A stretch of DNA of 64,000 nt from Candidatus Harrisonbacteria bacterium. GTDB taxonomy: Bacteria; Patescibacteriota; Minisyncoccia; UBA6257; 02-FULL-45-10c. This document shows, piece by piece, positions 4,751-57,203 of this stretch (its first letter is position 1; the number at the start of each line of letters is the position of its first letter). The DNA lies in contig JACROC010000007.1 of assembly GCA_016214655.1 (NCBI GenBank), positions 130,647-194,646 of the forward strand. The letters are read 5' to 3'. The notes under the pieces were generated by a model. It searched no databases. It was given only the letters and a program-made list of their open reading frames with translations, and had not been told where the DNA came from. A program made the translations under genes and the position numbers.

Positions 4751-6214
4751 TTATAGCTTAATCTTCTGCATGTGTTTGCCGTGAAAGACCGGGATATTCT
4801 GGTTCAGAGCCTGAACTCTTCGCTGGAATCCGGCGACGTTTTCCGCGTCGCCGTGATGAGCGATTATCGCTTCTACCAGGCAGAGCTCGCTCAGAAGTCG
4901 GACGCGCTCCACTAGTTTGTCGGCGGTGTCATGACCGGAAAGGCCGAACCGATAAACTTCGCAGCTCACCGGAACCGGCTTATCCACCTCTCGGCGCTTT
5001 TCTGAATCCCAAGTCCGTAACTTGACGGTGTCGCCCTTCTTCACTTTCAGCACAGCTTCGCCAATGCTGCCGGGGAACATGTAGCCAGTGAAGACTACCA
5101 GTCCCTTGCGATTCGGCAGAATATGCTCAGCGTGCTTGACGCTCATCCCTTTATCCATCATGGCAGAAGAGCTGATGATCGGCGAATAATTGATTCCGCA
5201 ACAGCTTCCTGAATCAGTTGCCAGACGGTGGCTTGCTTCGAGCTGATGCTCTTCAGGCAAGCTGTTCTTGTCCAGTTTCCGGTACAGGATCGCCATTTTA
5301 TTTTCGATCAGCTGATCAATTTCCAGCTTGATATCCTGTTCGCACCAGCGATAAGTATCTTGGGAATGAAGCAGGCAGAATTCCCGAGCCATTCCATCGA
5401 TATGCGTCGCGATGCCAAGGTCGCTCAGTTCCTTGACCAGGTTCGGGGCTCGGTCGGAAAATGAAGGCAGGAGGATTTGGTGCCGCTCCTGAATCATTTT
5501 CTTTACGAATCCGCCGAACTCTGACCAGAGCTCATTAAATGACTTTGGCATTTCGCGGTCGCCATAAGTTGCTTCCGTAATCATGACGATCTGCTTGCCA
5601 TCCAGGCGATTTCCGAAGAATTCGCGCGGAGGAAGCATTACGCCTTTGATGATCGGCTGGTCATGCGAACAGATGTCGCCGGTGATGAAATAAGCCGGGC
5701 CTTCCGGCGGAATGATGAAAATCATCATTGCTCCGCGTGTATGGCCGGCAGAATAAAATCCAAATGACCAGCCGGGCCAGATTTCGTACCAGCCAGGCTT
5801 GCCGATCGGATTGGTTCTTTGGAATAAATTCAAGATATCAGTTTGCGAATAAACGAATGGAGTCGGAGAGCCGCCGGCGCGCCGGACAGCTTTCTGCTCT
5901 GTTTCATAGATTTTCAGAGAATCTTTCAGCATGATTTCCGCGCCCATTGCCGTCGGCCGGGTCATGACGACCATAGCTTTGGGATTGTTGTGGACCAATG
6001 CCGGAAGATTTCCAGAGTGGTCCAGATGATGATGACTAAGCAGAATGAGATCGAGCTTGCCATCGTATTCGGTTTTGGCTGGGAAATAATTTCCGCCTAA
6101 TTTTGCATCGCGGATTCCCATTCCGGAATCAATCGCGATATATTTACCGCAGATATACTGAATATGCCCCGTTGCTCCCGGAGTTATCAACTGTTCGCCT
6201 GCCTGTATGTACAC
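4751..6214 (-). CDS. beta-CASP family MBL-fold nuclease (CPSF73/RNase J-like)
   Basis: MBL motifs HHHLDHSG (HxHxDH), SAGHTRGA, ITGDICS. beta-CASP motifs TEATYGD (A), LSGHDTA (B), IAHHGD (C). GTG start preceded by GGAGG. GC about 50% by eye, well above its neighbours. Confidence 0.7.
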   Translation of the reverse strand: MYIQAGEQLITPGATGHIQYICGKYIAIDSGMGIRDAKLGGNYFPAKTEYDGKLDLILLSHHHLDHSGNLPALVHNNPKAMVVMTRPTAMGAEIMLKDSLKIYETEQKAVRRAGGSPTPFVYSQTDILNLFQRTNPIGKPGWYEIWPGWSFGFYSAGHTRGAMMIFIIPPEGPAYFITGDICSHDQPIIKGVMLPPREFFGNRLDGKQIVMITEATYGDREMPKSFNELWSEFGGFVKKMIQERHQILLPSFSDRAPNLVKELSDLGIATHIDGMAREFCLLHSQDTYRWCEQDIKLEIDQLIENKMAILYRKLDKNSLPEEHQLEASHRLATDSGSCCGINYSPIISSSAMMDKGMSVKHAEHILPNRKGLVVFTGYMFPGSIGEAVLKVKKGDTVKLRTWDSEKRREVDKPVPVSCEVYRFGLSGHDTADKLVERVRLLSELCLVEAIIAHHGDAENVAGFQRRVQALNQNIPVFHGKHMQKIKL

Positions 6215-6447
6215 CTTGCCCTCCTTTTGTTCTTTTTACAAAGAACTCATCCCTCACTTCTATAGAACCAATCGGTCCTTAATTCTTTATATCCACTTTT
6301 ATAAATAGTGACTTTCTTACTTGGTCAACATATTCACAACTTTTTCCAAATTTATAAAAGTGAGGGATAAATTCTCTGTTTTTAGTTTTAAAAAATGAGC
6401 CCAGGGCCCGTGCATCCTTCCGGATGCACGGGCTCCCGGGCTTACTG

Positions 6448-7245
6448 TTAGCGGCGGTTGCCGCCCTTCTTCTTGCTGCCCGTTCCCGTCTGGGAGGCGG
6501 GAACCGCGGCAGGCACGGCTGGCGCCGGCGTCACGGCAGGCGTCGCGCTCGCGACGCTTTCCTTGAGCTGGTCCGCCGCTCCCGCAGGGAGCATCTGACC
6601 CAGCGTCACCGGTTTCGGACCACTGGCCCGCTCCTCGAGCCAGTCCCGAGGCGTCGCATCCTTCAGCTCGCGGTACAGCTTGCGGAACGACCCCGTGCTG
6701 AGCTGGACCGCCGGGGAGTTCTTCTTGTCGCCCCGGAACCGAACTTCCTTGTCCAGCCGTTCGAGGACGTCTTTCACGGCTCTCGCGTTCAGCCCGTGCT
6801 CGGGCTTGTAGTGGACCGCCGCCGCCGCGGGGATGAACTTCACCGTGGTGCGGATGCGCGAGTTGACGATCTTCATTCGATCGTCCTGGCACTCCTCCTC
6901 GGTCTTGAGGATGAAGGCGTGCTTCAGGGCGATGAGGCCGCGGGAGTACCGGTCCGAGAACTCCTTGTCCCACTGCCGCTTACCCTCTTCCCCGCTCATT
7001 GCGAGGATGAAGCCCACCTTCTGCATGTGCGAGGAGCACTCTCGGGCCTGGTCCGGCGTCCAGACGGAGACCGCCGTGCGCAGCTTGTCCGCTGCCGTGT
7101 CGTTCGCCTCACTGAGTGCGCCGAGCTCGGCTACGGGCTTGTTCTCCCGCTTGGCCTTGGCCAGGGCGCTGTACGCATCCGAGGCCGCCAGCGCGAGGTC
7201 GATCACCGCACGGTACTTCTGTTCCAGCTCCATCATTTTGTCCAT
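6448..7245 (-). CDS. Hypothetical protein in a very GC-rich segment, with an Ala/Pro-rich, Lys-rich C-terminal tail
   Basis: Chosen among many overlapping shadow ORFs in this roughly 66% GC segment because it is the longest frame and has an AAGGAG RBS 8 nt upstream of the ATG. No recognisable domain. Confidence 0.5.
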   Translation of the reverse strand: MDKMMELEQKYRAVIDLALAASDAYSALAKAKRENKPVAELGALSEANDTAADKLRTAVSVWTPDQARECSSHMQKVGFILAMSGEEGKRQWDKEFSDRYSRGLIALKHAFILKTEEECQDDRMKIVNSRIRTTVKFIPAAAAVHYKPEHGLNARAVKDVLERLDKEVRFRGDKKNSPAVQLSTGSFRKLYRELKDATPRDWLEERASGPKPVTLGQMLPAGAADQLKESVASATPAVTPAPAVPAAVPASQTGTGSKKKGGNRR

Positions 7246-7331
7246 GGTCTTCTTCTCCTTCCCCTTCTGGGGAAACGATCTGCTTTTTGATGTTGTACAA
7301 GGTACTGACTTTCGTAATTAAATACTAGCAT

Positions 7332-7380
7332 AAAAAAAGACCCTTGTCAATACCCTTTTTGGGGTTTAGTGACAAGGGTC
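7332..7380 (-). terminator. Intrinsic terminator for the 7391..8071 gene
   Basis: 11-bp stem gacccttgtca/tgacaagggtc followed, on the minus strand, by a T-run. Confidence 0.6.
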
Positions 7381-7390
7381 CATGGATGGA

Positions 7391-8071
7391 TTATCGCGGA
7401 AAAGTGGGGAAATTATTAAGTTCCGGCGGCACATTGCCGGCGCTGACCAGACTTACCGTGATGATTCCGCAGCTGCTTTCCAGTGCGGCGTCGATTTTGA
7501 GATATCCGAATTCTAAATTCTTTTCTGAAGGAACCACATTTAATCGGTATTTTACATAAAGCGGATTCCAGACCTCGGTTCTGGAAAAGAAATCCAGGTT
7601 TATGTAGCCAATCGGACTCTTCGGATCTTCGTCTTGGTGCTTGATGAAAAACGGACCATTCTCCGGATATTCCGGGAAAATCGTGAAGCGCTGACAGACT
7701 AATCCTTGAACGGATGCATCCGGCGTTTGCTTGAGATTGAGGCGCTGGAAAAGTTTGGTCAGGCCATCAGGCAACGCCGAGAAAGTGATGCGGAGCGTTG
7801 CACTTGAATTTAAAAGAAAAATTTCTTTTAAGAGGTCGGGATTGTTGGCTTCAGCAGTATGGACTAAGCTAACGGTTTGTGCTGTCGGATGTCCGGGAAT
7901 TCTCAACATGAAATGATCCCGAAGAGCCGGAGTTTCAGCAAAGAGCTTTCCGTAATCCCCGCCTAGGTAGGCGGAAAGTTCGTCCCTTCGGACCGTGGTT
8001 TCCAGGCCGACGCTCAATCCTCCTCCGAGAATGCCGGTGAAGCGAGTCAACTGCTTGACGGTGGTTTTCAC
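7391..8071 (-). CDS. Hypothetical protein, first gene of the GC-anomalous island
   Basis: 226-aa ORF. GTG start with GGAGG 5 nt upstream. No recognisable domain. Confidence 0.5.
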   Translation of the reverse strand: MKTTVKQLTRFTGILGGGLSVGLETTVRRDELSAYLGGDYGKLFAETPALRDHFMLRIPGHPTAQTVSLVHTAEANNPDLLKEIFLLNSSATLRITFSALPDGLTKLFQRLNLKQTPDASVQGLVCQRFTIFPEYPENGPFFIKHQDEDPKSPIGYINLDFFSRTEVWNPLYVKYRLNVVPSEKNLEFGYLKIDAALESSCGIITVSLVSAGNVPPELNNFPTFPR

Positions 8072-8146
8072 ATTTTCCTCCTTTTTACGGATTTTCGAAG
8101 AACTTGAGTCTGGCTATAGTATATAACAAAATTGGTTAATTGTAAA

Positions 8147-8295
8147 GAGCTCACTACCTATCTGTCTACCGGCACCGGAGTCCGTCCCGTCCAGCGCGGG
8201 ACGGCTCCTACGCCTCACCCCGAAAATTTTCGTTTCGCGAAAAACCAATCTTTTCGGGGTTCCGTAGTTGCCGCACGACAGATAGGTAGTTCACC
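8147..8295. repeat. Structured palindromic intergenic element, copy A (multi-hairpin; ends are inverted complements ACTACCTATCTGTC / GACAGATAGGTAGT)
   Basis: About 75% identical to copy B at 33813-33955. Differences between the copies are compensatory inside the hairpins (gtcccg..cgggac versus gccgac..gtcggc). Confidence 0.7.
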
Positions 8296-8334
8296 TTTAA
8301 ATTTGTTTGGGGGTAAGGGTGAATTCCGCTCAAT

Positions 8335-8362
8335 AAAAAATCCGCATACACGTGTATGCGGA
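8335..8362 (-). terminator. Intrinsic terminator of the flotillin-like gene
   Basis: Perfect palindrome tccgcatacacgtgtatgcgga followed, on the minus strand, by a T-run. Confidence 0.65.
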
Positions 8363-8386
8363 ATAGTTAATTACTAAAGTACTAAT

Positions 8387-10213
8387 TTATCCTTGTGCAG
8401 GAGGCTCCTTGTGGCCATTTCCATTCTTTAATCCATTTTGGATAAGACCAGCAAGTAGAACGTTGACGAGAGAGTTTCCCCCATCGCCATTGCCTGTTCC
8501 GCCAGCCATGATGTCCGGCACCAGTTTGATTTTGTTGTCAGCCAGCGCCCGTCCAACTTCCATAATGGCATAATTACTTTGGCCTACGGCATTAGTTTTC
8601 TTTTGGATAACTTCCGCTTCGGCCGTACCGACAGCGGTAGTTTTTTCAGCTTGAGCTTTACCGACAACGGTCAGAACTTCAGCATCAGCTTTAGCGTTAA
8701 CGGTTTTTGACGCTGCTTCACCTTCGGCCTGTTTGACTGCGGCTTGAGCAGTGAACTCGGCGATTGCCACGCTGCGTTCAGCATCAACGACTTTAGCTTG
8801 AGTAGCCGCTTGGGCTTTTGCCTGTTCTAATTCTTTGCGGGTTACCTCTGCGAGTCTTTGAGTTTCGTAAGTAACTTTTTCCTGCTCAGCCAGTTTTCTA
8901 TCGGTAAGTGTTTTCATCAGTTCGGCCGGAGGCACGATATCGCCGATAAGCGTATTCACTGCCCCGACGTTATATTCTTGAAGCGCTTCCGAGATACTCT
9001 TTCTGGCATCTTCCTGCCGTTGTCTTCGCGCTTTTAGGAATTCAATGACATCCGAACTCTGGGCGGCATTCCGGAAATAGTTTCCGATCGTTGGCTCCAG
9101 AACTTGAGTTACCAGATTTGCCACATTACCGAACCGCGCAATCACTAATGGCGCGTCATTCCGGGGAATATGAATTATCTGGCTGACGTCCAGGTTGAAT
9201 GAAAAGCCATCTGAAGACCTGACTGTGATAGTCGAAAGTTTTTCGTCCAGCTTGTGGGATTCGGTTTTGCCGGTTGCCCAGTTAAGGACAACGTTGGCAG
9301 TAGGCACGCACTCCAATTTGTGGGTATAGGGATTAATCGGATATTTCCCTGGATCAAGGGGGTCGGCCCAGACGCCTTTTTGTCCCCTGCTTACCAAGTT
9401 GCCGTGCTTGAATTCTTTGCCGCTGACATCAACGCCTTCTGCGCCGACATAGGCGATTACCACACCGACGTGGGCAATGGGAACCGTAGTCATTTCCTTA
9501 AGTTCCACGGTGGCGAAACGCGGGTTGATGAAATATCGTCCGGCCAGCATGACTTGTTCCTGTAAGCCTTTAAATCCGCCATTATCCAGGAAGGCTTGTC
9601 CGTCCTGGAACATGTTATGATTTTGGATTTCTCCGCCGGCAATCTCGCCGGTCTTAAGCGACTTTCCTTCTTTAGTGGTGACAACTCCGACCATATTATC
9701 GTCGATTTCGAGGACCGATTCTTCGGTCACAGAGAAAAGCGCCGTGTTGATCCGGTATGTCCCCGGAGGGATAACCGTAATTTGCGGACCGCGCTCACCG
9801 CCATTCTGGAGAAACGTTCTGGCATCTTGAAATGAATTACAGTCTACCTTTTTTGCAAGAACGCGACCCGCTGCGAGCGGACGGCCGTCGCTGGATTCAA
9901 CCACGCCAATTTTACCCTCTTGAATAGTGGTAAATTTTTGCAGAGTGACCAGATATTGCCATGGCCACAGCCAAAAGTGTACTCCTGGCGCGAGTGTATC
10001 TGCCTGGAGGCCAGCTTCGCCGTTTAAGGCGACGATAGCTCCATCGGGCAGAGTCCGGTTTTTGCCGATGATTACGAACTTCTTATTCACAACGCCCAAA
10101 GAGTCCTCGGGAATCAATACCACTCCGAATACGCGAAGCACCAATTTATAGCCAAATAAAAGCGCTACGATTGGTAATAGCCACAATAGACGCATTAATG
10201 TCTCTACGTTCAT
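8387..10213 (-). CDS. Flotillin-like SPFH/band-7 domain membrane protein (YqiK-like)
   Basis: N-terminal TM. SPFH-like core. Long Ala/Glu/Lys/Gln-rich coiled-coil segment (AEQEKV...AKAQAATQAKV...) typical of flotillins. AAAGGAGGTG RBS. Confidence 0.7.
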   Translation of the reverse strand: MNVETLMRLLWLLPIVALLFGYKLVLRVFGVVLIPEDSLGVVNKKFVIIGKNRTLPDGAIVALNGEAGLQADTLAPGVHFWLWPWQYLVTLQKFTTIQEGKIGVVESSDGRPLAAGRVLAKKVDCNSFQDARTFLQNGGERGPQITVIPPGTYRINTALFSVTEESVLEIDDNMVGVVTTKEGKSLKTGEIAGGEIQNHNMFQDGQAFLDNGGFKGLQEQVMLAGRYFINPRFATVELKEMTTVPIAHVGVVIAYVGAEGVDVSGKEFKHGNLVSRGQKGVWADPLDPGKYPINPYTHKLECVPTANVVLNWATGKTESHKLDEKLSTITVRSSDGFSFNLDVSQIIHIPRNDAPLVIARFGNVANLVTQVLEPTIGNYFRNAAQSSDVIEFLKARRQRQEDARKSISEALQEYNVGAVNTLIGDIVPPAELMKTLTDRKLAEQEKVTYETQRLAEVTRKELEQAKAQAATQAKVVDAERSVAIAEFTAQAAVKQAEGEAASKTVNAKADAEVLTVVGKAQAEKTTAVGTAEAEVIQKKTNAVGQSNYAIMEVGRALADNKIKLVPDIMAGGTGNGDGGNSLVNVLLAGLIQNGLKNGNGHKEPPAQG

Positions 10214-10334
10214 TTACCAACACCTCCTTTCCGTTTTTAGTTGTCGTGGCCAAAACAATCCGGCCACGAGCTTGTTGGAGAATACCATATCTATTTATTT
10301 AAGTCAATAAATTTTAAAGTCTTTACAAATACAG

Positions 10335-13591: not shown

Positions 13592-13647
13592 TTTATTATA
13601 GCATATCCGAATTTTTGGCTTAAAATAAAGAAAAAGACTCAAACGTA

Positions 13648-14040
13648 TTAGTTTGAGTCTGTGGTTGATCGGTCTGGCGCTACCAGAGAAAATTTTTCTA
13701 TGACGATTCTTTCTATTTCTTCAATGGAATAGTGGGGCTCAATTTTGATGACCGGAACGGAGTTGCCGTACTTTTCAAGATGCTGCCTGACGCCGGTATC
13801 GGAACTTTTTACCTGGAACCAAATTTTTGAGCGGTTGGGAAGTATGATAAGTATGTCCCATTTCCTTACCCGATCATTAAAATCGTTATGCTTACTCCTG
13901 CCAGCATCGGCGACATAACCTTTTTCTTTCAAGGATTGGCAGGCCCGGAAAGTTTTTCCCTCGGTGATGTTTCCGCGTTCTATTTGGAGTCTCCTGACTA
14001 TACTAAGAATTCTCAATCGGCGTTGGCGCCATTTGCGCAT
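13648..14040 (-). CDS. Hypothetical small basic protein, possibly with a PD-(D/E)xK-like fold
   Basis: Segment KWDILIILPN...IWFQVKSS resembles the D...(E/Q)xK pattern of the YraN protein at 39516 (ELDIIAKDPEGTLVFVEVKA). Family assignment is speculative. Confidence 0.35.
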   Translation of the reverse strand: MRKWRQRRLRILSIVRRLQIERGNITEGKTFRACQSLKEKGYVADAGRSKHNDFNDRVRKWDILIILPNRSKIWFQVKSSDTGVRQHLEKYGNSVPVIKIEPHYSIEEIERIVIEKFSLVAPDRSTTDSN

Positions 14041-14101
14041 CTGGCGGCCTCCATTTAGAAAACTCTTAAGATGATATTATATTTTTATAAATTAGTCAAC
14101 C

Positions 14102-16210
14102 TTATTTACTTAATTGTTTGATTGAAAGACCAACTTTGCCGTTTTCCATTTTTACGATTTTTGCCCTGACAAAATCACCTAATTTTAAGACATCTTCTAC
14201 CTTTTTGACGTAGCCGTCTTTTAATTCGGATACATGAATCATGCCGTCTTTGCCGGGACTGAATTCAACTATGGCTCCGAATTCTAAAATTTTTATCACC
14301 GTCCCCTCTACTATGTCGCCAACTTTATATTCTTTGGCGATTCCTAAAACCTGATCGTAAGCTTTTTGGGCCGTATCTTTATCTGTGGCGGTAATGAAAA
14401 CTCTGCCGTCATCTTCTATGTCTATTGAAGTTACGCCAGTGGCTTCAATTATTGCATTGATTACTTTGCCTCCCGGACCGATGACCTCGCCGATAAGTTC
14501 CGGATTAATCTGCAGACTAAGAATTCTCGGAGCAAAGGCGGAAAGTTCAGCTCTTGGTTCTGGTAAAGCTTTAACTATAGTTTCTAAAATGTGCAACCGA
14601 GCTTCTTTGGCTTGAGCCAGGGTTTTGCTGAGCATTTCAGGGGTGACGCCAAGAATTTTTACATCCATTTGGATAGCGGTGACGCCATTTTTAGTGCCGG
14701 CCGCTTTAAAATCCATATCGCCGTGGTGGTCTTCCGGTCCTTGGATATCGGTCAGAACTTTAAAATCCTCCCCCTTTTTATCTAATATCAATCCCATGGC
14801 AATTCCGGCCGCCGGTCCTTTAATCGGCACTCCGGCGTCCATTAAGGATAAGCTGCCGGCGCAAACCGATGCCATTGAAGATGAGCCGTTAGACGATAAA
14901 ATTTCGGAAACTAATCTGATGGTGTACGGAAATTTATCTTGCGTGGGTATCAGGGCGCGCAGAGCTTTTTCTGCCAATGCGCCATGGCCGATTTCTCTTC
15001 TGCCAGGCCCCCTCATTGCGCCGACTTCTCCGGTAGAAAATGGCGGGAAATTATAGTGGAGCATAAACCGGCGCTTGCCGGAAAATTCAATAGTATCTAC
15101 TAACTGTTGGTCGCCTGGGGCGCCAAGAGTGGTAAGCGCCAGGGATTGGGTATTGCCGCGGACAAAGAGCGCTGAGCCGTGGACTCGTTTTAACAACCCC
15201 ACTTCGGCATAAAGATCCCGGACTTGATTTAGTTTGCGGCCATCCGGGCGTTTTTCTTCCGCAAGGATTTTTTCATGGAGTAATTCGTCAATTTCTTTAT
15301 CAAAAAGAGTTTCAGCACCGGCAATGTCTTTTTCCGAGTAATCTTTTTCAGCTAGAGCAGTCTTCATTTTACCCTTTAAGGATTCCAGATTTTCTTGCCT
15401 TTCTACCTTGGTTTGGGTATAGAGCGCAGACTCCAGTTTATTTTTCAAAAATTCTTTTACAAATTTTACGATTTCCTGATTGGGTTCAGCTAAATCAACT
15501 TTTTCTTTTTCTTTGCCAGTTTCTTTAATCATATTTTTTTGGAAATTTACCAGGCTAGCAATTTCTTTTTGCGCCATTTCAAAAGCGGCTACTACATCTT
15601 TTTCATTGGCTTCATCTCCGCCAAGTTCAACCATGTTGATCCGGCTGTTAGTGCCGGCAATTAAAGTTTCAAATTCTATTTCTTTATCTTTGAACTCGCT
15701 GGTTTTTGGATTAAGAAGCAGAGCTGGATCATTTTTCAATTTTACTATTTTTACTCCTGCCACCGGACCGTTCCAGGGGATAGAAGAAATCGCCAGCGCA
15801 GCGGAACTGGACAGCAGGCTGATAAAATCTAAATCATTTTCGCCGTCAAAAGATAGGACAGTTATTACCACTTGAACTTCCCTTCTGGTTGCCTGATTAA
15901 ATAATGGCCGTATAGTCCGGTCAACAATGCGGCCGGTCAGAATCGCCTCATCTGAAGACTTTCCTTCACGGCGCATAAAGCGGCTCCCGAGGATTTTCCC
16001 GGCCGCATAAAATTTTTCTTCATAGTTGACCATCAGCGGAAAATAATCTCCATCTTTATCTTCTTTGCTCATGACTGCGGTTGCAAGGACGGTGGTGTCT
16101 CCATAAGTTCCGATCACGGCGGCATTGGCCTGTTCGGCAATGCGGGAAACTTCCAAAGTCAGCGGTTTGCCAGCGAATTCCATTTTAAATTGTTTTCTTT
16201 GTAAATCCAT
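14102..16210 (-). CDS. pnp: Polyribonucleotide nucleotidyltransferase (PNPase)
   Basis: Two RNase PH-like domains, KH and C-terminal S1 domain. Classical rpsO-pnp arrangement. Confidence 0.9.
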   Translation of the reverse strand: MDLQRKQFKMEFAGKPLTLEVSRIAEQANAAVIGTYGDTTVLATAVMSKEDKDGDYFPLMVNYEEKFYAAGKILGSRFMRREGKSSDEAILTGRIVDRTIRPLFNQATRREVQVVITVLSFDGENDLDFISLLSSSAALAISSIPWNGPVAGVKIVKLKNDPALLLNPKTSEFKDKEIEFETLIAGTNSRINMVELGGDEANEKDVVAAFEMAQKEIASLVNFQKNMIKETGKEKEKVDLAEPNQEIVKFVKEFLKNKLESALYTQTKVERQENLESLKGKMKTALAEKDYSEKDIAGAETLFDKEIDELLHEKILAEEKRPDGRKLNQVRDLYAEVGLLKRVHGSALFVRGNTQSLALTTLGAPGDQQLVDTIEFSGKRRFMLHYNFPPFSTGEVGAMRGPGRREIGHGALAEKALRALIPTQDKFPYTIRLVSEILSSNGSSSMASVCAGSLSLMDAGVPIKGPAAGIAMGLILDKKGEDFKVLTDIQGPEDHHGDMDFKAAGTKNGVTAIQMDVKILGVTPEMLSKTLAQAKEARLHILETIVKALPEPRAELSAFAPRILSLQINPELIGEVIGPGGKVINAIIEATGVTSIDIEDDGRVFITATDKDTAQKAYDQVLGIAKEYKVGDIVEGTVIKILEFGAIVEFSPGKDGMIHVSELKDGYVKKVEDVLKLGDFVRAKIVKMENGKVGLSIKQLSK

Positions 16211-16318
16211 AAACTATGATACTAATATACTAATTCTACTAATGATACGAATAATACTAATTCTTTTTTATATTCGTATGATTGGTATCATTCGCATGCA
16301 TTCGTATATTGGTATCGC
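16205..16318 (-). repeat. AT-rich roughly 105-nt intergenic repeat, copy 1 (immediately upstream of pnp)
   Basis: Its reverse complement matches the copies at 46665-46760 and 56889-56992 (gcgataccaatatac.aatgcatgcgaatgatac ... attcgtatcattagta.aatt.gtatattagtatcatag). Contains internal direct sub-repeats ataccaata and attcgtat. Confidence 0.8.
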
Positions 16319-17192: not shown

Positions 17193-17274
17193 TGATTTAT
17201 ATATTACCTTACTTTTAAGAAAATTACAATAGCAATAACTGTCGCACAATATCTTTCCGGGGTATAATAAATTT

Positions 17275-18186: not shown

Positions 18187-18215
18187 TTGACAGAAAATTT
18201 ATTATATGCTATATT
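18187..18215 (+). promoter_or_regulatory. Consensus sigma70-type promoter (TTGACA-17-TATATT)
   Basis: Exact -35 TTGACA, 17-nt spacer, -10 TATATT. Sits immediately after the recombinase stop and upstream of the small GC-rich ORF. Confidence 0.55.
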
Positions 18216-18273
18216 ATAAATATGATCAGGCCGATGCGTTTTGGTCTGACACAACAGTTCTTTGGGGGGTTAC

Positions 18274-18396
18274 ATGGAAGACAATAAGCCGCAGCAGACG
18301 GGAACGAGAGTCGTGCCAGGACTCGCGTTCATCGGGGGCGTGTTTTTGACCCAAGCTGAGCTCAAGGAGGAGCTCGCGCGGAGGCGGGGCGAGTAA
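18274..18396 (+). CDS. Small GC-rich ORF (40 aa, single hydrophobic segment)
   Basis: MEDNKPQQTGTRVVPGLAFIGGVFLTQAELKEELARRRGE. GC content is far above its surroundings. G-rich SD-like stretch upstream, consensus promoter before it, hairpin terminator after it. Below the ORF-table length cutoff. Confidence 0.4.
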   Translation: MEDNKPQQTGTRVVPGLAFIGGVFLTQAELKEELARRRGE

Positions 18397-18431
18397 GCCC
18401 CAAAGCCCAACCGAAAGGTTGGGCTTGTTTT
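18397..18431 (+). terminator. Intrinsic terminator
   Basis: Hairpin aagcccaacc-gaaa-ggttgggctt followed by a T-run. Confidence 0.65.
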
Positions 18432-18761: not shown

Positions 18762-19439
18762 TTAACTGAGAAATATTCTCCAAATCGTGTCTACGGATCC
18801 GTGGATGAAAATCGGCACCAGGATATTTCTGGATTTCATATAGGAAATTCCATAGACCAGTCCGGCAATGAACGCCATTCCGACGTACTGCCAGTTCGGG
18901 AAAGTGCTATTTCCAGAGAGGTGGGTATAAATAACTGCAAAAAGCGCAGTGCTGGTAAAAAGCGCGGGCCATTTATTAAAGTGTCTTTCCAGTAAATTAA
19001 AGATAATGCCGCGGAAAATTAATTCTTCGCTAGGGGCGACAAAAAGATAATATCCGATAGCGGTGGAAATTATGTGGTTCGGTTCAAGCCGGGGGTTGAA
19101 TTTTAAAAATCCAAGCAATAATCCTGCCGGAATCAGAATCTTAGTCAGGATTCCTAGCGAAAGTATCGCGATCAGCGCGCTTTTTTTAGAAAATTCAACT
19201 TTGCCAAGATTGATTTTTCGGCGGTGTATAAACCAAATGGAGAGCAGAATCAGGATTACTGCCGCTATATTATACGGATTTGCGACGGCGGTAGTGGCGA
19301 GATATTTTTGCCAATATCCCAAGTTGAATACCTGCCAGGAACTTAAAAGAAAAAGCGCATCCCAGTGATTAATTTTATAGGTGTCTTTAGATTTAAAAAT
19401 GGCAAAGACTGATATGGCAATACTTACCCAGAAGACCAT
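18762..19439 (-). CDS. CPBP-family intramembrane metalloprotease (CAAX protease / Abi-like)
   Basis: Motifs EELIFRG (EExxxR), FxxxH and a HGSVD-type motif within a polytopic membrane protein. Confidence 0.7.
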   Translation of the reverse strand: MVFWVSIAISVFAIFKSKDTYKINHWDALFLLSSWQVFNLGYWQKYLATTAVANPYNIAAVILILLSIWFIHRRKINLGKVEFSKKSALIAILSLGILTKILIPAGLLLGFLKFNPRLEPNHIISTAIGYYLFVAPSEELIFRGIIFNLLERHFNKWPALFTSTALFAVIYTHLSGNSTFPNWQYVGMAFIAGLVYGISYMKSRNILVPIFIHGSVDTIWRIFLS

Positions 19440-19600: not shown

Positions 19601-19748
19601 GTATACATATACTATTTATATTAAAAGAAAACGTCACCTTTGACAACACCATCATTTTATGCTATTTTATGGATAGTGTAAACTCCTGTTAATTCGCCTA
19701 AAGCGAATGCGGGATGAGCTTGAAATCTAAACAAAGGAGGTGGAAAGT

Positions 19749-20567
19749 ATGACTTGGTTGCTAGTGGTTGTGATTCTGGCGCTGATAGCCTGTTCGGTGG
19801 TTTCAACCCTTATGCAGGTGCCGGCATATACGGCTGTTTTATTGGAAAATAGAATTTCTGGATCAGTCCGTTCTATCGGACCGGGGATTCACTTCATATT
19901 TCCCTGGGAAAAGATTGTTCCAAATTCAGAAACGGTTATTAAAAAAAGCAGCCATTTGTTCCCGGCTGATTTTGAGACTAAGAATCACAAAGTCATTTCG
20001 TTGAAGGTTGCTTTTGATCTGATACCGGACGTGAATAATCTCAGAGGTTATATTGCTTTTGATGAAAGAACCAGAATAGCTGGAATTACAGAGAGAATAA
20101 AGTCTATTTTGAGCAACCTGATTAGGGAAATGAAGGATCGCGAAGAGGTTATGGCGAAGTTTAAGGAAATTGGTCCGAGGGTTAAAGATATTTTCGAGCA
20201 GACTTTATCCGAGGATGGGAAAAGACTGGAGTACTATTACGGGATTGATTTGAAGGTTCTGATGATTCCAGATGTTGAGCTTCCTAAGGAGTTGAAGGAG
20301 GCAAGCATTCGGCAGGAAGCTACAAAGAAAGATAACGAGACTCGAAAATTAGAGATGACTAATATGAAAAAGATGGCCATGGATTTAGTGAAGGCGTCTG
20401 GTGGCACGATGCCGCTTGAGGTTGCTATGGAAATTATGCAGTTGCAGTTTGGCAAGGGCAACGTGAAGAAAGAGCTTCATCGGTTCGGTTTGGATCGCGG
20501 AACGCAAGAGATGGTTCTGAAGTTTCTGGAAAAGATTCCGGAGCTGATCAATGCCTTCCGATCCTAA
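19749..20567 (+). CDS. SPFH/band-7 domain protein
   Basis: N-terminal TM then IGPGIHFIFPWEKI, which resembles the SPFH/HflK core. AAAGGAGGTG RBS 6 nt before the ATG at 19749. Confidence 0.55.
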   Translation: MTWLLVVVILALIACSVVSTLMQVPAYTAVLLENRISGSVRSIGPGIHFIFPWEKIVPNSETVIKKSSHLFPADFETKNHKVISLKVAFDLIPDVNNLRGYIAFDERTRIAGITERIKSILSNLIREMKDREEVMAKFKEIGPRVKDIFEQTLSEDGKRLEYYYGIDLKVLMIPDVELPKELKEASIRQEATKKDNETRKLEMTNMKKMAMDLVKASGGTMPLEVAMEIMQLQFGKGNVKKELHRFGLDRGTQEMVLKFLEKIPELINAFRS

Positions 20568-24015: not shown

Positions 24016-24046
24016 AATTTAATTATACAACAATAAGTCTTATTGG

Positions 24047-26503: not shown

Positions 26504-26513
26504 GGTTGATTAT

Positions 26514-26849
26514 CTATTTATTTTTATTAGTCGCCGGACTTGCTCCTTGGATGGTGATAGAATTAGTCTGGTTGGCTAGTTCTTGAAGCGAGGCCATTAA
26601 TTCACTGAATTTTGACCCCACTTCTTTGGAAGTTATTTCCAGGCCGTTTTTCATAGTTTCCATAAATCCTGGCCCGTTATTATTTTTTTCTTTTTCGTTG
26701 AGGCCCCGGACGGTGAGATTAATATAAACGATCCAAAGCGGAATTATTATTAACATAGTCCCGGAGCTTAAGATCATTAGCCAGCGTTTTTTAGCGGTCT
26801 CGTCTTTTTGCCGAAGATCGAGAAAAAAATTTTGGATTTTTTGTAACAT
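26514..26849 (-). CDS. Hypothetical small membrane protein
   Basis: 111-aa ORF with one TM helix. Confidence 0.4.
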   Translation of the reverse strand: MLQKIQNFFLDLRQKDETAKKRWLMILSSGTMLIIIPLWIVYINLTVRGLNEKEKNNNGPGFMETMKNGLEITSKEVGSKFSELMASLQELANQTNSITIQGASPATNKNK

Positions 26850-28885: not shown

Positions 28886-28972
28886 ACTTTTGCCTTATTT
28901 TATTATATTATGTAATCAGTAAAGTTGTGCTTGGAAATTGACAACAAAAGATGGAAAGTGAGGTGAGAAAAG

Positions 28973-30700: not shown

Positions 30701-30714
30701 TTTATAATAGGAAA

Positions 30715-33271: not shown

Positions 33272-33472
33272 TGTTTTTTCTCCTGTCGTAGGATTCGTCA
33301 GCCGAAGGCTGGCGCGCTGTTGTCTCAACAGCGATTTAGCAAGAAGTTTTCCGACCAAATCGCTGCTGAGAAGATTTTAAAAGAGCTTTATTCTTATAAA
33401 TATATTATACCATATTGGAGTAATTTGTCAATAGTTGGAAAAAGTGTTACTTTAGAGTAAAATATTTTTAAT

Positions 33473-33545: not shown

Positions 33546-33552
33546 CAAAATT

Positions 33553-33804: not shown

Positions 33805-33812
33805 ATTTTGCG

Positions 33813-35625: not shown

Positions 35626-35746
35626 CGAACGTCCTCCTGCTATCTCTGCTTACACAAAGATAGCATAGTAATATAATCGCTGTTGATAATTTTGTCAATA
35701 GCCGATAAGATAGTCAATATCGGCGTGTTCGCTGTTGCAATTTTTT

Positions 35747-37284: not shown

Positions 37285-37296
37285 TGTGCGCCTCCT

Positions 37297-37869: not shown

Positions 37870-38026
37870 TACACCCTCCTTTATGAAAATTTTAAGGTAC
37901 TGCCCTTATAAAAATATAATAGCATATTTAATCTGTATTGTCAAGGTAAATCTATATAGGGATTGCAAAATAACTGGTAAACAGTTATTTTTTTATTAGT
38001 TGCTGAAAATTGCATAGGAGATTTAG

Positions 38027-39443: not shown

Positions 39444-39515
39444 ATAGTTTCACAATAAACTTTCTTAATTTGTTATCGCGATAACAAATTATATCATGTA
39501 ATTCAACAAACATCT

Positions 39516-39983
39516 ATGACTAAAAAATCTGAAACAGGAAAACTGGGTGAAGATATTGCCTGCCAATATCTTTTAAACAAAGGATTTAGTATTATTGAGC
39601 GAAATTATAGGAAGCTATGGGGCGAGTTAGATATTATTGCGAAAGATCCGGAGGGAACTTTAGTTTTTGTAGAGGTAAAGGCAATTCGGCAATTCGGCAA
39701 TTATAAAAATGCGGCAATTTTGCCGGAAGAAAATTTAACTGCCGCAAAATTAAAGAAATTAAAAAGAACCGCATCTTTATATGCTGGATTTAATGAAAAT
39801 TTAATTGATGACGAAAGGGGATGGAGGATTGATCTCGTTGCAATCATGATTCCGGATGTTTTACATGAAACATTGATCCCGTTAGAGACAGAGGCACGCT
39901 GTGAGCCCTCGCGGTCTCTAACGGGATTGACAGAATTATTAAAATATTGTGATATAAAACATTTTGAAAATGTGGAAATGTAA
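39516..39983 (+). CDS. YraN-family (UPF0102) endonuclease-like protein
   Basis: GEDIACQYLLNKGFSIIERNYR...GELDIIAKDPEGTLVFVEVKA matches the UPF0102/YraN PD-(D/E)xK pattern. Has a C-terminal extension. Confidence 0.65.
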   Translation: MTKKSETGKLGEDIACQYLLNKGFSIIERNYRKLWGELDIIAKDPEGTLVFVEVKAIRQFGNYKNAAILPEENLTAAKLKKLKRTASLYAGFNENLIDDERGWRIDLVAIMIPDVLHETLIPLETEARCEPSRSLTGLTELLKYCDIKHFENVEM

Positions 39984-41366: not shown

Positions 41367-41495
41367 TTTTCCTCCTTTCAGTTCTTAATCTACTGGTCAT
41401 AGTTTACAAGATCTTCTGGGAAAAGTCAAATGACTGTACCAGAAAGATTGTAAAGCAATTTTTAATTTAAATGGCTATATATTATAATTAATCTA

Positions 41496-46565: not shown

Positions 46566-46664
46566 TCAGCGGAGCTTTAGGATCTTGACAAATCCTACTT
46601 TGTTGTCTATTATTATTGTAATGATTGATTGTCCGCCGAGAGCGGACATTTTATTAAAAACAAT

Positions 46665-46760
46665 CGCGATACCAATATACTAATGCATGCGAATGATACC
46701 AATAATACAAATTCGCATTTATTCGTATCATTAGTACAATTCGTATATTAGTATCATAGT
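46665..46760 (+). repeat. AT-rich intergenic repeat, copy 2 (immediately upstream of nusA; has a central deletion relative to copies 1 and 3)
   Basis: cgcgataccaatatactaatgcatgcgaatgataccaata...attcgtatcattagtacaattcgtatattagtatcatag ends 3 nt before the nusA ATG. Confidence 0.8.
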
Positions 46761-46763
46761 TTT

Positions 46764-47996: not shown

Positions 47997-48040
47997 TTAA
48001 TAGACTTTTAGCTTCTAGTTTTGAGCTTTTAGAAAATTTC

Positions 48041-48071
48041 TAACAGCTGAGAGCTAACAGCTAACAGCTAG
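48041..48071 (+). repeat. Short tandem repeat (AGCTAAC)n upstream of the pyrophosphatase gene
   Basis: taacagctgagagctaacagctaacagctag is seen directly in the sequence. Confidence 0.5.
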
Positions 48072-48072
48072 G

Positions 48073-50052
48073 GTGATGTTATATTTATTAATTTTTATTC
48101 CAATTGCATTAGCAGTCGCCTATAGCATTTATATTGTGCTTTGGCTTGGCAAACAGCCGCGCGGCAATGCTAAGATGGTAGAAATTTCCGAAGCGATTCA
48201 AGAAGGATCTAGCGCTTTTTTAAATCGTCAGTATCGCAGTGTGGCGGTAGTCGCCGTAATTTTGCTGGTAGCTGTTTATTATTTTTCAGGCTCTCTGTCT
48301 GCTGCTGGATTTTTGGTTGGCGCAGTAGCTTCGGCGGTAGCTGGTTATATCGGGATGAATGTAGCAGTCCGTTCTAATTCCCGGACTGCGGAAGCTGCCA
48401 GCCAAGGTTTAAATGCGGCGCTCTCCCTTGCTTTTAAAGCCGGTTCAGTAACTGGATTTTTAGTAGTGGCGCTGGGACTTTTATCCATTGCTGGATTTTA
48501 TCTTTTGACTCAAGATGTACGGGCTTTAGTCGGCCTCGGTTTTGGCGCAAGTTTAATTTCAATATTTGCCAGACTTGGCGGCGGAATTTATACCAAAGCT
48601 GCCGACGTCGGCACTGACCTGGTTGGTAAGGTTGAAGCTGGTATTCCGGAAGATGATGTCCGTAATCCTGGCGTGGTAGCAGATAATGTCGGTGATAATG
48701 TTGGCGATTGCGCTGGTATGGCGGCTGATTTATTTGAAACTTATGCGGTGACGTTAGTAGCCTCCATGCTTTTGGGATTTTTGATTGATAAAGATTTAGC
48801 CAGTCCGCTGGTCATTTTTCCAATGGTTTTAGGAGGGCTGGCCATTGCCGCATCTTTAATCGGCACTTTATTCGTAAGAGTCGGCGAGGGCGGAACAATT
48901 ATGGGCGCGTTATATAAGGGATTATCCGCCACATTAGTGGTTTCGGCTTTCGCTTTCTATCCGGTGATGCGATTATATTTTGGTGATGGTTACTGGAATT
49001 TTTATCTGAGCGCTTTAGTCGGTTTAGTAGTTACCGTTTTAATGGTGATAGTAACAGATTATTATACGGCGAAAAGTTATCGTCCGGTAAAATCCATTGC
49101 CGAGGCTTCCAATTCCGGCCACGGCACTAATATCATTATCGGACTTTCGGTGGGTATGGAATCTACTTTTGTTCCGGTTTTAATTATTGTCGGGGCGATA
49201 CTCGCCAGTTTTGCGTTAGCTGGTCTTTACGGGGTTTCACTCGCTGCTACTGCCATGCTTTCGGTTGCCGGAATTATTATTGCTATTGATTCTTTTGGTC
49301 CGGTTACGGATAATGCTGGCGGTATTGCGGAAATGAGCGGGGCGTCGTCTGATGTCAGGAAAATCACCGATGCTTTGGATGCGGTCGGTAATACTACTAA
49401 AGCAGTTACTAAAGGTTATGCAATCGCTTCTGCCGGGCTTGCCGCACTGGTGCTTTTTGCCGGTTATGTGGAGGAATTTGCCAGCCGCGCCAGAGATTTA
49501 GTTTTTGAATTAGAAGATCCTTATGTGGTAGTCGGGCTTCTACTTGGCGCGGCAGTTCCGTATCTTTTTGCTTCGATTGCTATGAAGTCCGTCGGCCGGG
49601 CAGCCGGCGCGGTGGTAGAAGAAATCCGGAGACAATTCCGGGAAATTCCAGGAATCATGGAATTTAAGGCTAAGCCGGATTATGGCCGGGCAGTGGATAT
49701 TGTTACCAAAGCCGCGCTTAAAGAGATGGTGGTGCCGGCGCTAATCCCAGTTCTTTCAGTGGTATTAGTCGGATTTCTGCTTGGCGCAAAAGCACTGGGC
49801 GGATTTTTGGTGGGCACGATCGTGGCCGGTCTTTTTCTGGGAATTTCTATGACTACTGGTGGCGCCGCTTGGGACAATGCGAAGAAATATATTGAATCCG
49901 GCAATTACGGCGGTAAGGGTTCTGACGCGCATAAAGCCGCAGTAACCGGCGACACGGTCGGTGACCCTTACAAAGATACCGCCGGTCCAGCAATCAACCC
50001 GCTGATCAAAGTTATAAATATTGTTGCGCTGCTCCTGGTTCCGTTTTTATAA
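48073..50052 (+). CDS. hppA: Membrane-bound proton- or sodium-translocating pyrophosphatase
   Basis: Polytopic. Signature [19 protein letters not shown] and [19 protein letters not shown]. Confidence 0.85.
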
Positions 50053-52415: not shown

Positions 52416-52444
52416 TTGACTTTTTAATTTGAATATATTAATAT
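52416..52444 (+). promoter_or_regulatory. sigma70-type promoter (TTGACT-17-TAATAT)
   Basis: Exact spacing of near-consensus hexamers upstream of the 52481 ORF. Confidence 0.5.
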
Positions 52445-52480
52445 AATTTTAATTCTTTAATAATATAAACAGGAAAAAAG

Positions 52481-52774
52481 ATGACTTTTTGCAAAGAAGT
52501 TGTTATAACTAGGCTTAACGGAAGGACAAAATTTGCACTTGTGGATTTAGTTAAGATACCCAAAACACCTGAAGAAAAAAAATTTGAAGACGTTAAATAT
52601 CGTAAACTATTTACGACCAATAAAGGATTATTGCTTCGAGGTATTTGGCAAGTTGCAAAGCAAATTTTGGAATTTCAAAATTCCAAACATTGTACCCCCG
52701 AGCTTCGAATGAAATTAGAGAAAGATTTAGAAAAATTGGCCAGAAAGCTTGATAAAACAATGAGTCTCTCGTAA
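52481..52774 (+). CDS. Hypothetical small basic protein
   Basis: 97-aa Lys-rich ORF with its own promoter and a downstream terminator (acgggag hairpin then a T-run). Confidence 0.4.
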   Translation: MTFCKEVVITRLNGRTKFALVDLVKIPKTPEEKKFEDVKYRKLFTTNKGLLLRGIWQVAKQILEFQNSKHCTPELRMKLEKDLEKLARKLDKTMSLS

Positions 52775-52803
52775 AACGGGAGATTTTTATTTATAATATA
52801 AAA

Positions 52804-53967: not shown

Positions 53968-54014
53968 TTTTGTAATATCTAATCAGCTCCAGAAAATACA
54001 AAGGAGGGGAAACG

Positions 54015-54248
54015 ATGCCTAATCGGAGACGGTTGAACACGGGACAGAAAGTACGGGAAATGAGATTCGCCTTGGGCGGCAGAAGGGCCGTAATCGAGGT
54101 TATGGAATCTGGATCTGTTTCCAGCTTAAAACGCTGGGAGAGGCGTGAATGCTCCCCGATTTCTGCTCATGTAAAGGTGGTTGGCGATGCCTATGACATG
54201 TGGCTATTGATGAAAAAAGCGGTTCGTAAGAGATTGCAGAGACACTGA
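54015..54248 (+). CDS. Small basic GC-rich hypothetical protein (77 aa)
   Basis: Perfect SD AAAGGAGGGG 5 nt before the ATG. Hairpin terminator ctgaccatcttggtcag then a T-run follows. GC is clearly above its flanks. Confidence 0.45.
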   Translation: MPNRRRLNTGQKVREMRFALGGRRAVIEVMESGSVSSLKRWERRECSPISAHVKVVGDAYDMWLLMKKAVRKRLQRH

Positions 54249-54415: not shown

Positions 54416-54452
54416 AAAAGTTAAGTGATAAAGTATTAACAATCAAAAATAT

Positions 54453-56888: not shown

Positions 56889-56992
56889 CGCGATACCAAT
56901 ATACTAATGCATGCGAATGATACTAATTATGCGAATATTTTAAAATTAGTATTATTCGTATCATTAGTACAATTCGTATATTAGTATCATAG
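56889..56992 (+). repeat. AT-rich intergenic repeat, copy 3 (full-length, downstream of thrA)
   Basis: Near-identical to the reverse complement of copy 1 and to copy 2 over about 100 nt. Confidence 0.8.
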
Positions 56993-57053
56993 TTAGCGTC
57001 AGCGATAAAAAAGAAAAGCGCCCCGATGGTTAATCGAGGCGCCGGTGATGAAG

Positions 57054-57203
57054 TTATCTCTTTTTGAGTTCTTCCAAGATTCCCTTTAGGAGACTGTTAG
57101 TTTCATTTAAGGGCTCTAGAAAAAATACGCACAAGATCAATACTGCTAAGATTGGGCTAAACATTATTCCCAATCCCATGAGGGCTAGACAGGCTGTATA
57201 CAT
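57054..57203 (-). CDS. Small hydrophobic protein (49 aa)
   Basis: MYTACLALMGLGIMFSPILAVLILCVFFLEPLNETNSLLKGILEELKKR. AAAGGAGGA RBS 6 nt upstream. Below the ORF-table length cutoff. Confidence 0.45.
   Translation of the reverse strand: MYTACLALMGLGIMFSPILAVLILCVFFLEPLNETNSLLKGILEELKKR

Follow-up and report, generated by a model that had tools for sequence, protein, structure and literature searches.

The stretch of DNA analysed here, 64 kb of a Candidatus Harrisonbacteria genome (GenBank assembly GCA_016214655.1, contig JACROC010000007.1, positions 130,647 to 194,646; hereafter the window), appears to use two expression architectures, in which conserved genes are leaderless or coupled to the gene upstream and a second set, drawn mostly from the flexible genome, carries a leader and a strong Shine-Dalgarno (SD) sequence. 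We put the probability of this reading at roughly 0.75. A two-mode layout is already known in other lineages, and Harrisonbacteria is a new lineage for it; a literature search, which was limited and is not proof of novelty, found no paper tying leaderless initiation or SD usage to Patescibacteria.

Start signals in the window

The strength of the SD was scored for 56 genes of the window (~42% GC overall) as the ViennaRNA duplex energy against the canonical anti-SD tail, from which the 3' end of the host's own 16S may differ, and 820 internal ATGs served as background. The energies are bimodal across the 56 starts: 13 of them (23%) lie at or below -9 kcal/mol vs 1.2% of the internal ATGs (binomial p=1.5e-13), 15 lie at or below -7 vs 3.5% (binomial p=7e-10), and in the remaining 41 the pairing with the anti-SD falls below that of random internal ATGs (median -0.4 vs -2.7). 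The two start classes described in an earlier, sequence-only reading of this DNA are thus real. Its list of strong-SD genes was confirmed gene by gene, with gaps measured at 4-9 nt, and its list of genes without an SD proved equally sound, comprising nusA, gyrA, pnp, rpsO, tig, clpP, tyrS, thrA, asd, aroK, ddl, xerC, the pilins and the giant protein.

A strong SD was found in 15 of the 56 genes (27%). The GGAGG core stands 4-9 nt 5' of the start in 11 genes and takes the AAAGGAGG form in nine, while four SDs are weaker (AAGGAG at 6448-7245, GAGGTGA at 28973, AGGAG at 32843-33271 and 38027), and GTG or TTG is the start codon in 4/15. A complete sigma70-type promoter, TTGAC[AT]-N16/17-TAnnnT, ends 31-133 nt 5' of the start in ten of the SD genes; the other five are second genes or have slightly weaker promoter boxes. 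When 28-48 kb was searched independently for consensus promoters, those of hyp32843, mem2 and the ligase-like gene (Table 1) came out as the top three of four matches, and the leader of the ligase-like gene holds a hairpin adjoining the SD. Moreover, the eight minus-strand AAAGGAGG octamers all lie at or adjoining ORF (open reading frame) starts, save one within coding sequence.

The genes without an SD carry a different signal. A Pribnow box (TATAAT, TATCAT or TAAAAT type, with at least 5/6 positions matching) ends 5-9 nt 5' of the ATG in 15 genes, and the start codon is ATG in 15/15. When TATAAT boxes with an ATG within 30 nt that opens an ORF of at least 80 codons are considered, nine of ten lie at a gap of 6-8 nt (binomial p=6.8e-9) and none of the same ten at 0-5 or 9-18 nt. 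A perfect TATAAT ending 6-8 nt 5' of the ATG belongs to xerC, ftsH, tyrS, hyp12368, the solute-binding protein, the giant protein, asd, ddl and gene 2-724; with one mismatch tolerated, pnp, nusA and aroK (TATCAT), gyrA (GATAAT) and two TAAAAT genes join them. Boxes with at least 5/6 matches lie at a gap of 5-9 nt in 16/37 cases among non-SD genes (p=2.4e-6), and none was found within 0-18 nt of the starts of SD genes. The motif is confined to unit-initial genes and not found at operon-internal ones, no -35 consensus was seen at these leaderless-type promoters, and in several genes, such as ftsH and tyrS, the box comes right after a terminator hairpin. A further 8-9 non-SD genes (ksgA, hyp20551, thrC, DUF5673, pil2-4 and tig) either overlap their upstream neighbour or are separated from it by no more than 10 nt, which is compatible with translational coupling to that gene.

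The presence of a -10 box at the ATG of no-SD genes, together with full promoters 5' of the SD genes, indicates that the real dichotomy is leaderless vs leadered with a strong SD. Since the Pribnow box has its mode 6-7 nt 5' of the ATG, transcription would start at or adjoining the A of the start codon, and such genes would be without an SD because there is no leader in which one could sit. On a leaderless mRNA, the ribosome and initiator tRNA would bind the 5'-terminal AUG, where an SD is neither possible nor needed, and operon-downstream genes that overlap or lie within 10 nt would be served by termination-reinitiation. The leadered genes, about a quarter of the total, would be transcribed from TTGAC[AT]-N17-TAnnnT and translated from a near-perfect AAAGGAGG placed 4-9 nt before ATG, GTG or TTG. 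This element is complementary to the canonical ...CCUCCUUU 16S tail and presumably pairs with the host's own 16S, the tail of which is predicted from the SD consensus to read ...CACCUCCUUU. Ribosomes with weak S1 function handle weak-SD leaders poorly. The short S1 of bacteria of the Candidate Phyla Radiation (CPR), with three to four domains (PMC9297842), might therefore favour an 'all-or-nothing' arrangement in which a gene has either a strong SD or no leader at all; the S1 homologue of the window has 363 aa and three S1 matches. The sequence-only reading proposed an SD-independent host; in the Bacteroidetes sense this is not supported, as the genes that have no SD are coupled upstream or place a -10 box right against the ATG.

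Other occurrences of these motifs were set aside or are recorded as separate observations. Copies of AAAGGAGG at 13174(-), 21933(+) and 27980(+), as well as TAAGGAGGT at 52383(-), lie within or antisense to coding regions and have no usable start, and SD matches at alternative in-frame starts of no-SD genes (thrA 54492, tig 50113, pil1 21342) are coding sequence, the GGAGG of thrA encoding a conserved KFGG motif. Full promoters with no annotated SD gene behind them occur at 18187-18430(+), 46585-46648(+) and 52416-52774(+). The first (TTGACA-N17-TATATT) comes right after xerC and leads into a GC-rich, ORF-free segment of ~200 nt; the second (TTGACA-N17-TATTAT) lies 150 nt 5' of nusA and directly precedes a terminator-like hairpin; the third (TTGACT-N17-TAATAT) sits in the 800-nt gap between clpP and tyrS, 5' of a 97-aa ORF (52482-52774). 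Small RNAs or attenuators are possible products of the first two. Besides, the 49-aa ORF at 57054-57203(-), divergent from asd and without NCBI annotation, has one of the best promoter and SD pairs of the window and could encode a small membrane protein or a toxin-like peptide that has gone unnoticed. Upstream of pnp (16211-16250, -) and nusA (46724-46763, +) there is a near-identical module of ~40 nt (CGTATCATTAGTA.AATT.GTATATTAGTATCATAGTTT-ATG) with two TATCAT boxes, which may be a promoter or regulatory module common to these two RNA-metabolism genes. Tandem AGCTAA(C) repeats stand just 5' of the start in some leadered no-SD genes, such as hppA (48040-48075, +; GAGCTAACAGCTAACAGCTAGG-GTG-ATG) and the pnp of a relative, L164 (~14951-15000; AAGCTAATAAGCTAAAACCTAAGAAGCTAAAATT-ATG), and might act as a non-SD initiation or regulatory element.

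Composition, conservation and alternative explanations

The leadered class consists mostly of flexible-genome genes, namely hypotheticals, SPFH/flotillin genes, membrane proteins and a cassette around a beta-CASP gene (bCASP), which evolve or turn over fast and are atypical in composition. GC content at third codon positions (GC3) is 0.541 in SD genes vs 0.400 in the others (Mann-Whitney U p=5.8e-6), and the gap persists without the region 4751-10213 (p=2.4e-4) and also without mem1, mem2 and hyp32843 (p=0.004). Overall GC reaches 0.49-0.66 in the region 4751-10213, 0.53-0.56 in mem1 and mem2 and 0.54 in hyp32843, with porin-like, ligase-like, HAD and SPFH genes of native composition. Median best identity to relatives in syntenic blocks is 25% for SD genes vs 66% for non-SD genes (p=0.0026), and between 27.7 and 64 kb the SD genes run against the prevailing gene direction in 6/9 cases vs 3/19 for non-SD genes (Fisher p=0.013). 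Membrane or envelope proteins among the SD genes include two SPFH proteins, mem1, mem2, the porin-like protein and the 49-aa hydrophobic peptide; nine of nine SD genes found in the NCBI annotation are listed there as 'hypothetical protein'.

The relatives examined, with ~85 kb of DNA, were L161 (GCA_016192685.1, core proteins 63-91% identical), L164 (GCA_030646915.1), L165 and L166 (ComM 83-84% identical) and L167 (GCA_001818675.1), the last reached via a protein search with the LAGLIDADG ORF of the window. Among their 81 genes, 15 are SD-led and show the GC3 excess again (p=0.004). SD-led homologues (AAAAAGGAGGC, GAAGAAGGAGGA, GAAAGGAGGT and similar) were found for SPFH, isl2, isl3, bCASP and hyp13648, the SPFH SD being kept in both L164 and L165 and the positional homologue of hyp13648 being SD-led in L165. 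The GGAGG core is retained 5' of these five homologues in L164, L165 and L167, where the proteins are 23-58% identical; SPFH and isl2 homologues are only ~23-25% identical, yet their upstream core is kept. Likewise, the -10 box at the ATG of xerC, tyrS, rpsO, ddl and the giant protein homologue is kept in L161, L164 and L165, and L167 has the same split between SD-led and leaderless genes. Whether a gene is SD-led or leaderless is a trait of that gene that stays stable throughout the clade, not a transient mark of recency. As a separate case, the CAAX protease is SD-led in L161 and L165 (ATGGAGGATAA-ATG, CAGGGGGGAGA-ATG) and not in the window (19427-19439, ATGGTAATAA-ATG), an example of SD gain or loss inside the clade.

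An alternative explanation, which underlies the sequence-only reading, is that the host ribosome ignores SDs and that SD genes are recent horizontal imports retaining the ribosome-binding sites (RBS) of their donors. We regard it as unlikely, although the higher GC3 of SD genes speaks for it, as do isl2a (GC 0.66 and GC3 0.87 in a 42% GC genome), the porin-like gene with its mostly Elusimicrobia homologues, and the anti-SD motif reported missing in about half of Parcubacteria (PMC9297842). Additionally, L161, the sole relative covering their region, has no mem1, mem2 or ligase-like gene, and the flotillin-like gene flot is missing from all three genomes that cover its site (L164, L165, L166). 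Homologues of flot occur at 66-78% identity in contigs with a GC of 36-70%, at 58-59% on megaplasmids of Ralstonia and at 53% in a 642-kb phage. Spread across such different genomes and plasmids but missing from close relatives, flot is a genuine, window-specific horizontal insertion.

Most other SD genes do not fit a recent import. A PNPase-centred scan of GTDB representatives found the backbone xerC-rpsO-NYN-pnp-...-dksA-comM-LysM-uvrD-ksgA kept in at least ten CPR lineages. The whole 4751-10213 block, which looked like a recent insertion against Microgenomates and other CPR, was rejected as such, since closer relatives keep the slot and only flot is new. The slot adjoining LysM-M23 holds bCASP together with the two small genes in L164 and L165, and just the two small genes in L167; proteins of this cassette are hyperdivergent (bCASP 58% and 24%, isl2 25%, isl3 41% vs 70-84% for pnp, uvrD and xerC). 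It is a variable cassette at a fixed site rather than a recent one-off island. L161 has the porin-like and HAD genes in synteny at 63-65% identity, a divergence like that of core genes, and both genes are long-resident; the HAD orthologue of L161 (65% identical) has no SD. Four relatives, with core proteins at only 63-91% identity, keep the SD state per gene or slot, which is not what recent arrival would leave, and GGAGG upstream of SPFH and isl2 at ~23-25% protein identity implies selection within the clade. One SD consensus (AAAGGAGG at 4-9 nt) and uniform TTGAC[AT]-N17 promoters recur whatever the GC of the gene, which would be unexpected from diverse donors, and what stands before non-SD genes is no generic leader devoid of an SD but a specific signal, the -10 box at the ATG. 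The uniform consensus, spacing and promoters, together with the GGAGG kept at ~25% identity, argue for signals read by the clade's own RNA polymerase and ribosome and tuned to the host machinery rather than for relics of assorted donors.

The claims on gene origin in the sequence-only reading were thus borne out in part. The link between signal and origin holds insofar as the SD tracks GC3, low conservation and the insertion of flot, and fails for several SD genes of native composition and vertical history. Recent acquisition applies to flot and not to most SD genes, given the SD state kept in four relatives, the shared cassette slot and the syntenic porin-like and HAD genes. The single consensus and the uniform sigma70 promoters speak against SDs inherited from SD-using donors. 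As a criterion for spotting foreign genes, the SD can be retained as an enrichment marker for flexible genes and is not diagnostic of foreignness.

Several side observations concern these same loci. The cassette 4751-8071(-), with a beta-CASP/MBL nuclease and two small proteins, lies between LysM-M23 and dksA/comM, its small proteins have no Pfam match and its layout is that of a variable or defence-like locus. A defence system was considered for the three-gene island and rejected, with no PADLOC matches and NCBIfam beta-CASP matches (aCPSF1, Cas14) far below cut-off. The 450-aa porin-like protein (40014-41366, -), SD-led and with synteny kept in another Harrisonbacteria genome, is unexpected in CPR bacteria, which are generally held to be without an outer membrane. 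Its homologues mostly belong to Elusimicrobia (43-59% identity), some with PF07396 (Porin_O_P), and an old transfer link to that group is possible. The isl2 family has a GC3 of 0.87 in the window (6448-7245, -), 0.85 in L164 (7862-8575, -), 0.68 in L165 (8207-8893, -) and 0.76 in L167 (4903-5589, -), very high for genomes with 40-44% GC, and yet its proteins share only ~25% identity. A simple explanation by horizontal transfer not yet ameliorated is inadequate; the cassette may have been replaced repeatedly, or GC-rich codons may have been selected for.

A functional partition, with leadered SD mRNAs reserved for genes that need post-transcriptional control or a set expression level (membrane and SPFH proteins, small proteins, enzymes required only under certain conditions) and GC3 reflecting selection on the mRNAs instead of foreignness, also has rather low odds in our judgement. 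In its favour are the membrane or envelope proteins found among many of the SD genes, the conservation of the SD state, the hairpin adjoining the SD in the ligase leader, and the isl2 GC3, which stays high in four genomes despite ~25% identity. However, ftsH, the solute-binding protein and the giant protein are among many membrane proteins of the leaderless type, and the pilins too are without an SD. Neither the missing flot of the relatives nor the hyperdivergence of the cassette is accounted for, and no regulatory RNA family was detected in the window.

More improbable still is that this lineage belongs to the Parcubacteria without a CCUCCU anti-SD and that the AAAGGAGG elements are recognised by another reader; if so, specialised or heterogeneous ribosomes, a protein factor or state-specific translation would read them. 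A milder version is better supported, in which flexible genes travel as cassettes of -35/-10, leader and strong SD while the core is leaderless, and the initiation signal would then be a heritable marker of gene-pool membership. Finally, an artefact of mis-chosen starts or chance matches in AT-rich upstream DNA is scarcely credible: the start codons were chosen by us, two leaderless-type starts differ from those of NCBI, and SD-like motifs occur at alternative in-frame starts such as those of thrA and tig, but 17 of 20 tested starts agree with NCBI, orthologue lengths agree, the alternative SD-like matches code for conserved residues, the statistics against background are strong and the pattern is the same in independent relatives.

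The reading of two architectures has points against it as well. Leaderless transcription at the -10/ATG sites is deduced from motif geometry only. The CCTCCT anti-SD motif was detected in only 48% of Parcubacteria 16S genes (PMC9297842); the window holds no rRNA, and a 16S 3' motif was found in 0/169 fetched loci. About 12 genes without an SD, a nearby -10 box or coupling are unexplained (uvrD, dksA, comM, NYN, CAAX, pil1, S1, HTH, UPF0102, hppA, clpP and AMP-binding). Operon-internal or closely spaced genes (ksgA, thrC, pil2-4, tig and others) are mostly without an SD, unlike those of the classical group C genomes discussed below. The sample comprises 56 genes of the window and 81 of the relatives, and many of the latter are orthologues, which makes the replication partly dependent. 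In the NCBI annotation of the same metagenome-assembled genome (MAG; locus tags HZB99_, proteins MBI49924xx), proteins were identical for 9/10 SD-type starts tested, one GTG and one TTG among them, and for 8/10 leaderless-type starts, the two that differ being hyp12368 and ftsH; gene order and number match the accession numbering to within two or three small ORFs.

Gene finders applied to MAGs of CPR or Patescibacteria assume an RBS, and a layout dominated by leaderless genes alters the prediction of starts, promoters and operons. The pattern on the mRNA side ties to published traits of CPR ribosomes, namely the short S1, the frequent loss of bS21 and the anti-SD often undetected in Parcubacteria, and suggests as a rule for CPR genomes that conserved genes are leaderless and flexible genes have portable, complete expression signals. 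The peak in spacing from TATAAT to ATG recurs in Harrisonbacteria relatives, where 64 kb contain eight boxes at gap 6 or 8. Other CPR loci show it more weakly, with 14 boxes at gap 6-7 over 370 kb, and the non-CPR loci that the same query retrieved (961 kb) do not show it; leaderless initiation may thus be widespread in CPR.

Coordinates and other elements of the window

Table 1. Genes of the window with a strong SD or with a -10 box at the start codon; for minus-strand genes the start is the higher coordinate.
Gene	Coordinates or start	Strand	Start signal	Promoter	Remarks
beta-CASP/MBL gene (bCASP)	4751-6214	-	SD AAGGAGG 6220..6226, 5 nt before GTG 6214		NCBI MBI4992428.1 identical
isl2a	6448-7245	-	SD AAGGAG 7255..7260, 9 nt before ATG 7245	TTGACA-N17-TAGTAT from 7350	GC 0.66, GC3 0.87
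isl3	7391-8071	-	SD AAGGAGG 8077..8083, 5 nt before GTG 8071
flot (flotillin-like SPFH gene)	8387-10213	-	SD AAGGAGG 10223-10229	TTGACT-N17-TATTCT from 10307
hyp13648	13648-14040	-	SD (T)GGAGG 14048..14052, 7 nt before ATG 14040	TTGACT-N17-TATCAT from 14099
SPFH	19749-20567	+	SD AAGGAGG 19734..19740, 8 nt before ATG 19749	TTGACA-N17-TATTTT at 19640
563-aa hypothetical	ATG 28973	+	SD GAGGTGA 28960..28966, gap 6 nt	TTGACT-N17-TATTAT at 28883
hyp32843	32843-33271	-	SD AGGAG 33280..33284, 8 nt before ATG 33271	TTGACA-N16-TATAAT 33431-33404 (12/12)	GC3 0.67
ATP-dependent ligase-like	34624-35625	-	SD AGGAGG 35633..35638, 7 nt before TTG 35625	TTGACA-N17-TATATT from 35698
mem1	36655-37284	-	SD 37291-37297 (AAGGAGG or AGGAGG)		GC-rich membrane paralogue of mem2
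mem2	37297-37869	-	SD 37875-37881	TTGACA-N17-TATTAT 37944-37916	promoter common to mem1 and mem2
HAD hydrolase	GTG 38027	+	moderate SD AGGAG 38016..38020, gap 6 nt
porin-like	40014-41366	-	SD AAGGAGG 41371-41377, 4 nt before ATG 41366	TTGACT-N17-TAAACT from 41429
77-aa ORF	54015-54248	+	SD AAGGAGG 54001..54007, 7 nt before ATG 54015		annotated by NCBI
49-aa hydrophobic ORF	57054-57203	-	SD AAGGAGG 57209-57215, 5 nt before ATG 57203	TTGACA-N17-TATATT from 57270
gene 2-724	ATG 724	-	-10 TATAAT 733..738, gap 8 nt
hyp12368	ATG 13588	-	-10 TATAAT 13595..13600, gap 6 nt		NCBI start differs
pnp	ATG 16210	-	-10 TATCAT 16216..16221, gap 5 nt
xerC	ATG 17275	+	-10 TATAAT 17263..17268, gap 6 nt		kept in L161, L164, L165
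solute-binding protein (SBP)	ATG 24015	-	-10 TATAAT 24022..24027, gap 6 nt
gyrA	ATG 26503	-	-10 GATAAT 26509..26514, gap 5 nt
ftsH	ATG 30715	+	-10 TATAAT 30703..30708, gap 6 nt		right after terminator hairpin 30674-30693; NCBI start differs
giant protein (1689 aa)	ATG 41496	+	-10 TATAAT 41483..41488, gap 7 nt
nusA	ATG 46764	+	-10 TATCAT 46752..46757, gap 6 nt
tyrS	ATG 52804	+	-10 TATAAT 52792..52797, gap 6 nt		same design in L161
asd	ATG 57264	+	-10 TATAAT 57251..57256, gap 7 nt
aroK	ATG 58379	+	-10 TATCAT 58366..58371, gap 7 nt
ddl	ATG 63624	-	-10 TATAAT 63632..63637, gap 7 nt

The window also holds five tRNAs and genes typical of CPR, for example four tandem pilins of type IV secretion system (T4SS) type and an NYN gene adjoining pnp. 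An intergenic element of ~140 nt is present in multiple copies, two complete ones at 8150-8292(+), adjoining flot, and at 33812-33950(+), and a partial one at 32593-32649(+), with further copies in L161 at 7563-7709(-) and 3895-4022(-). Its closing stem (CTACCTATCTGTC / GACAGATAGGTAG) is long and hairpins lie inside the element; RNAalifold on four copies gave 52 pairs, of which 20 show compensatory double changes, and the sole match to Rfam was at chance level. The element is a candidate for a new structured RNA or a structured miniature inverted-repeat transposable element of Harrisonbacteria. The partial copy and a full copy flank hyp32843 together with tRNA-Ile(UAU) (33473-33546, +), so that this tRNA adjoins the GC-rich, SD-led ORF 32843-33271 within a repeat-bracketed segment. 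The anticodon UAU is an uncommon bacterial way to read AUA.

Between a LAGLIDADG gene (38991-39443, -) and a UPF0102 gene (39516-39983, +), the interval 39444-39515 contains the perfect palindrome TTGTTATCGCGATAACAA, which is kept almost base for base in L161 (11778-11848). Both genes are very AT-rich (GC3 0.24 and 0.30). The LAGLIDADG gene was considered as an rRNA-intron gene and rejected, as it is a free-standing neighbour of UPF0102 in every locus fetched, without rRNA.

Likeness to known initiation systems

Some of the features described above recall genomic islands and flexible cassettes, namely the insertion of flot, the hypervariable bCASP cassette at a fixed LysM-M23 slot and the GC-rich mem1, mem2 and hyp32843, which adjoin tRNA genes. 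They differ from such islands in that no integrase, transposase or clear att repeats were found at the borders of flot or of the island, and in that the cassette slot is kept in relatives.

In Firmicutes, dependence on a strong SD is linked to a short or non-functional S1. The leadered genes of the window are similar in their long, near-perfect SDs (AAAGGAGG) and canonical -35/-10 boxes, and the S1 homologue is short; in Firmicutes, however, such SDs stand before nearly all genes and leaderless mRNAs are few. The likeness to Bacteroidota (GeneMarkS-2 group B), in which the anti-SD is sequestered on the ribosome, lies in housekeeping genes that mostly have no SD and are A/T-rich upstream. Unlike the situation here, their one non-SD motif precedes all genes, internal ones too, on leadered mRNAs, and strong SDs are rare; in the window the motif is a -10 box at a fixed distance and before unit-initial genes only, and very strong SDs occur in 27% of genes.

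The closest parallel is found in GeneMarkS-2 group C, which combines frequent leaderless transcription with SD RBSs and includes Actinobacteria (Mycobacterium tuberculosis) and Deinococcus-Thermus, with a few Proteobacteria and Firmicutes also named (Lomsadze et al., 2018; PMC6028130). As in that group, a Pribnow box lies 6-8 nt 5' of the starts of operon-first genes, and a second gene set has an SD at the same distance, a mixture that hides any single RBS motif (PMC6028130). The differences are that the lineage here belongs to the Parcubacteria within CPR, that operon-internal genes are mostly without an SD, that the SD sits on poorly conserved, GC3-rich genes with a -35 box, and that the leaderless promoters have no -35 consensus. 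Overall, the pattern is best described as group-C-like dual initiation with SD use concentrated in the flexible genome.

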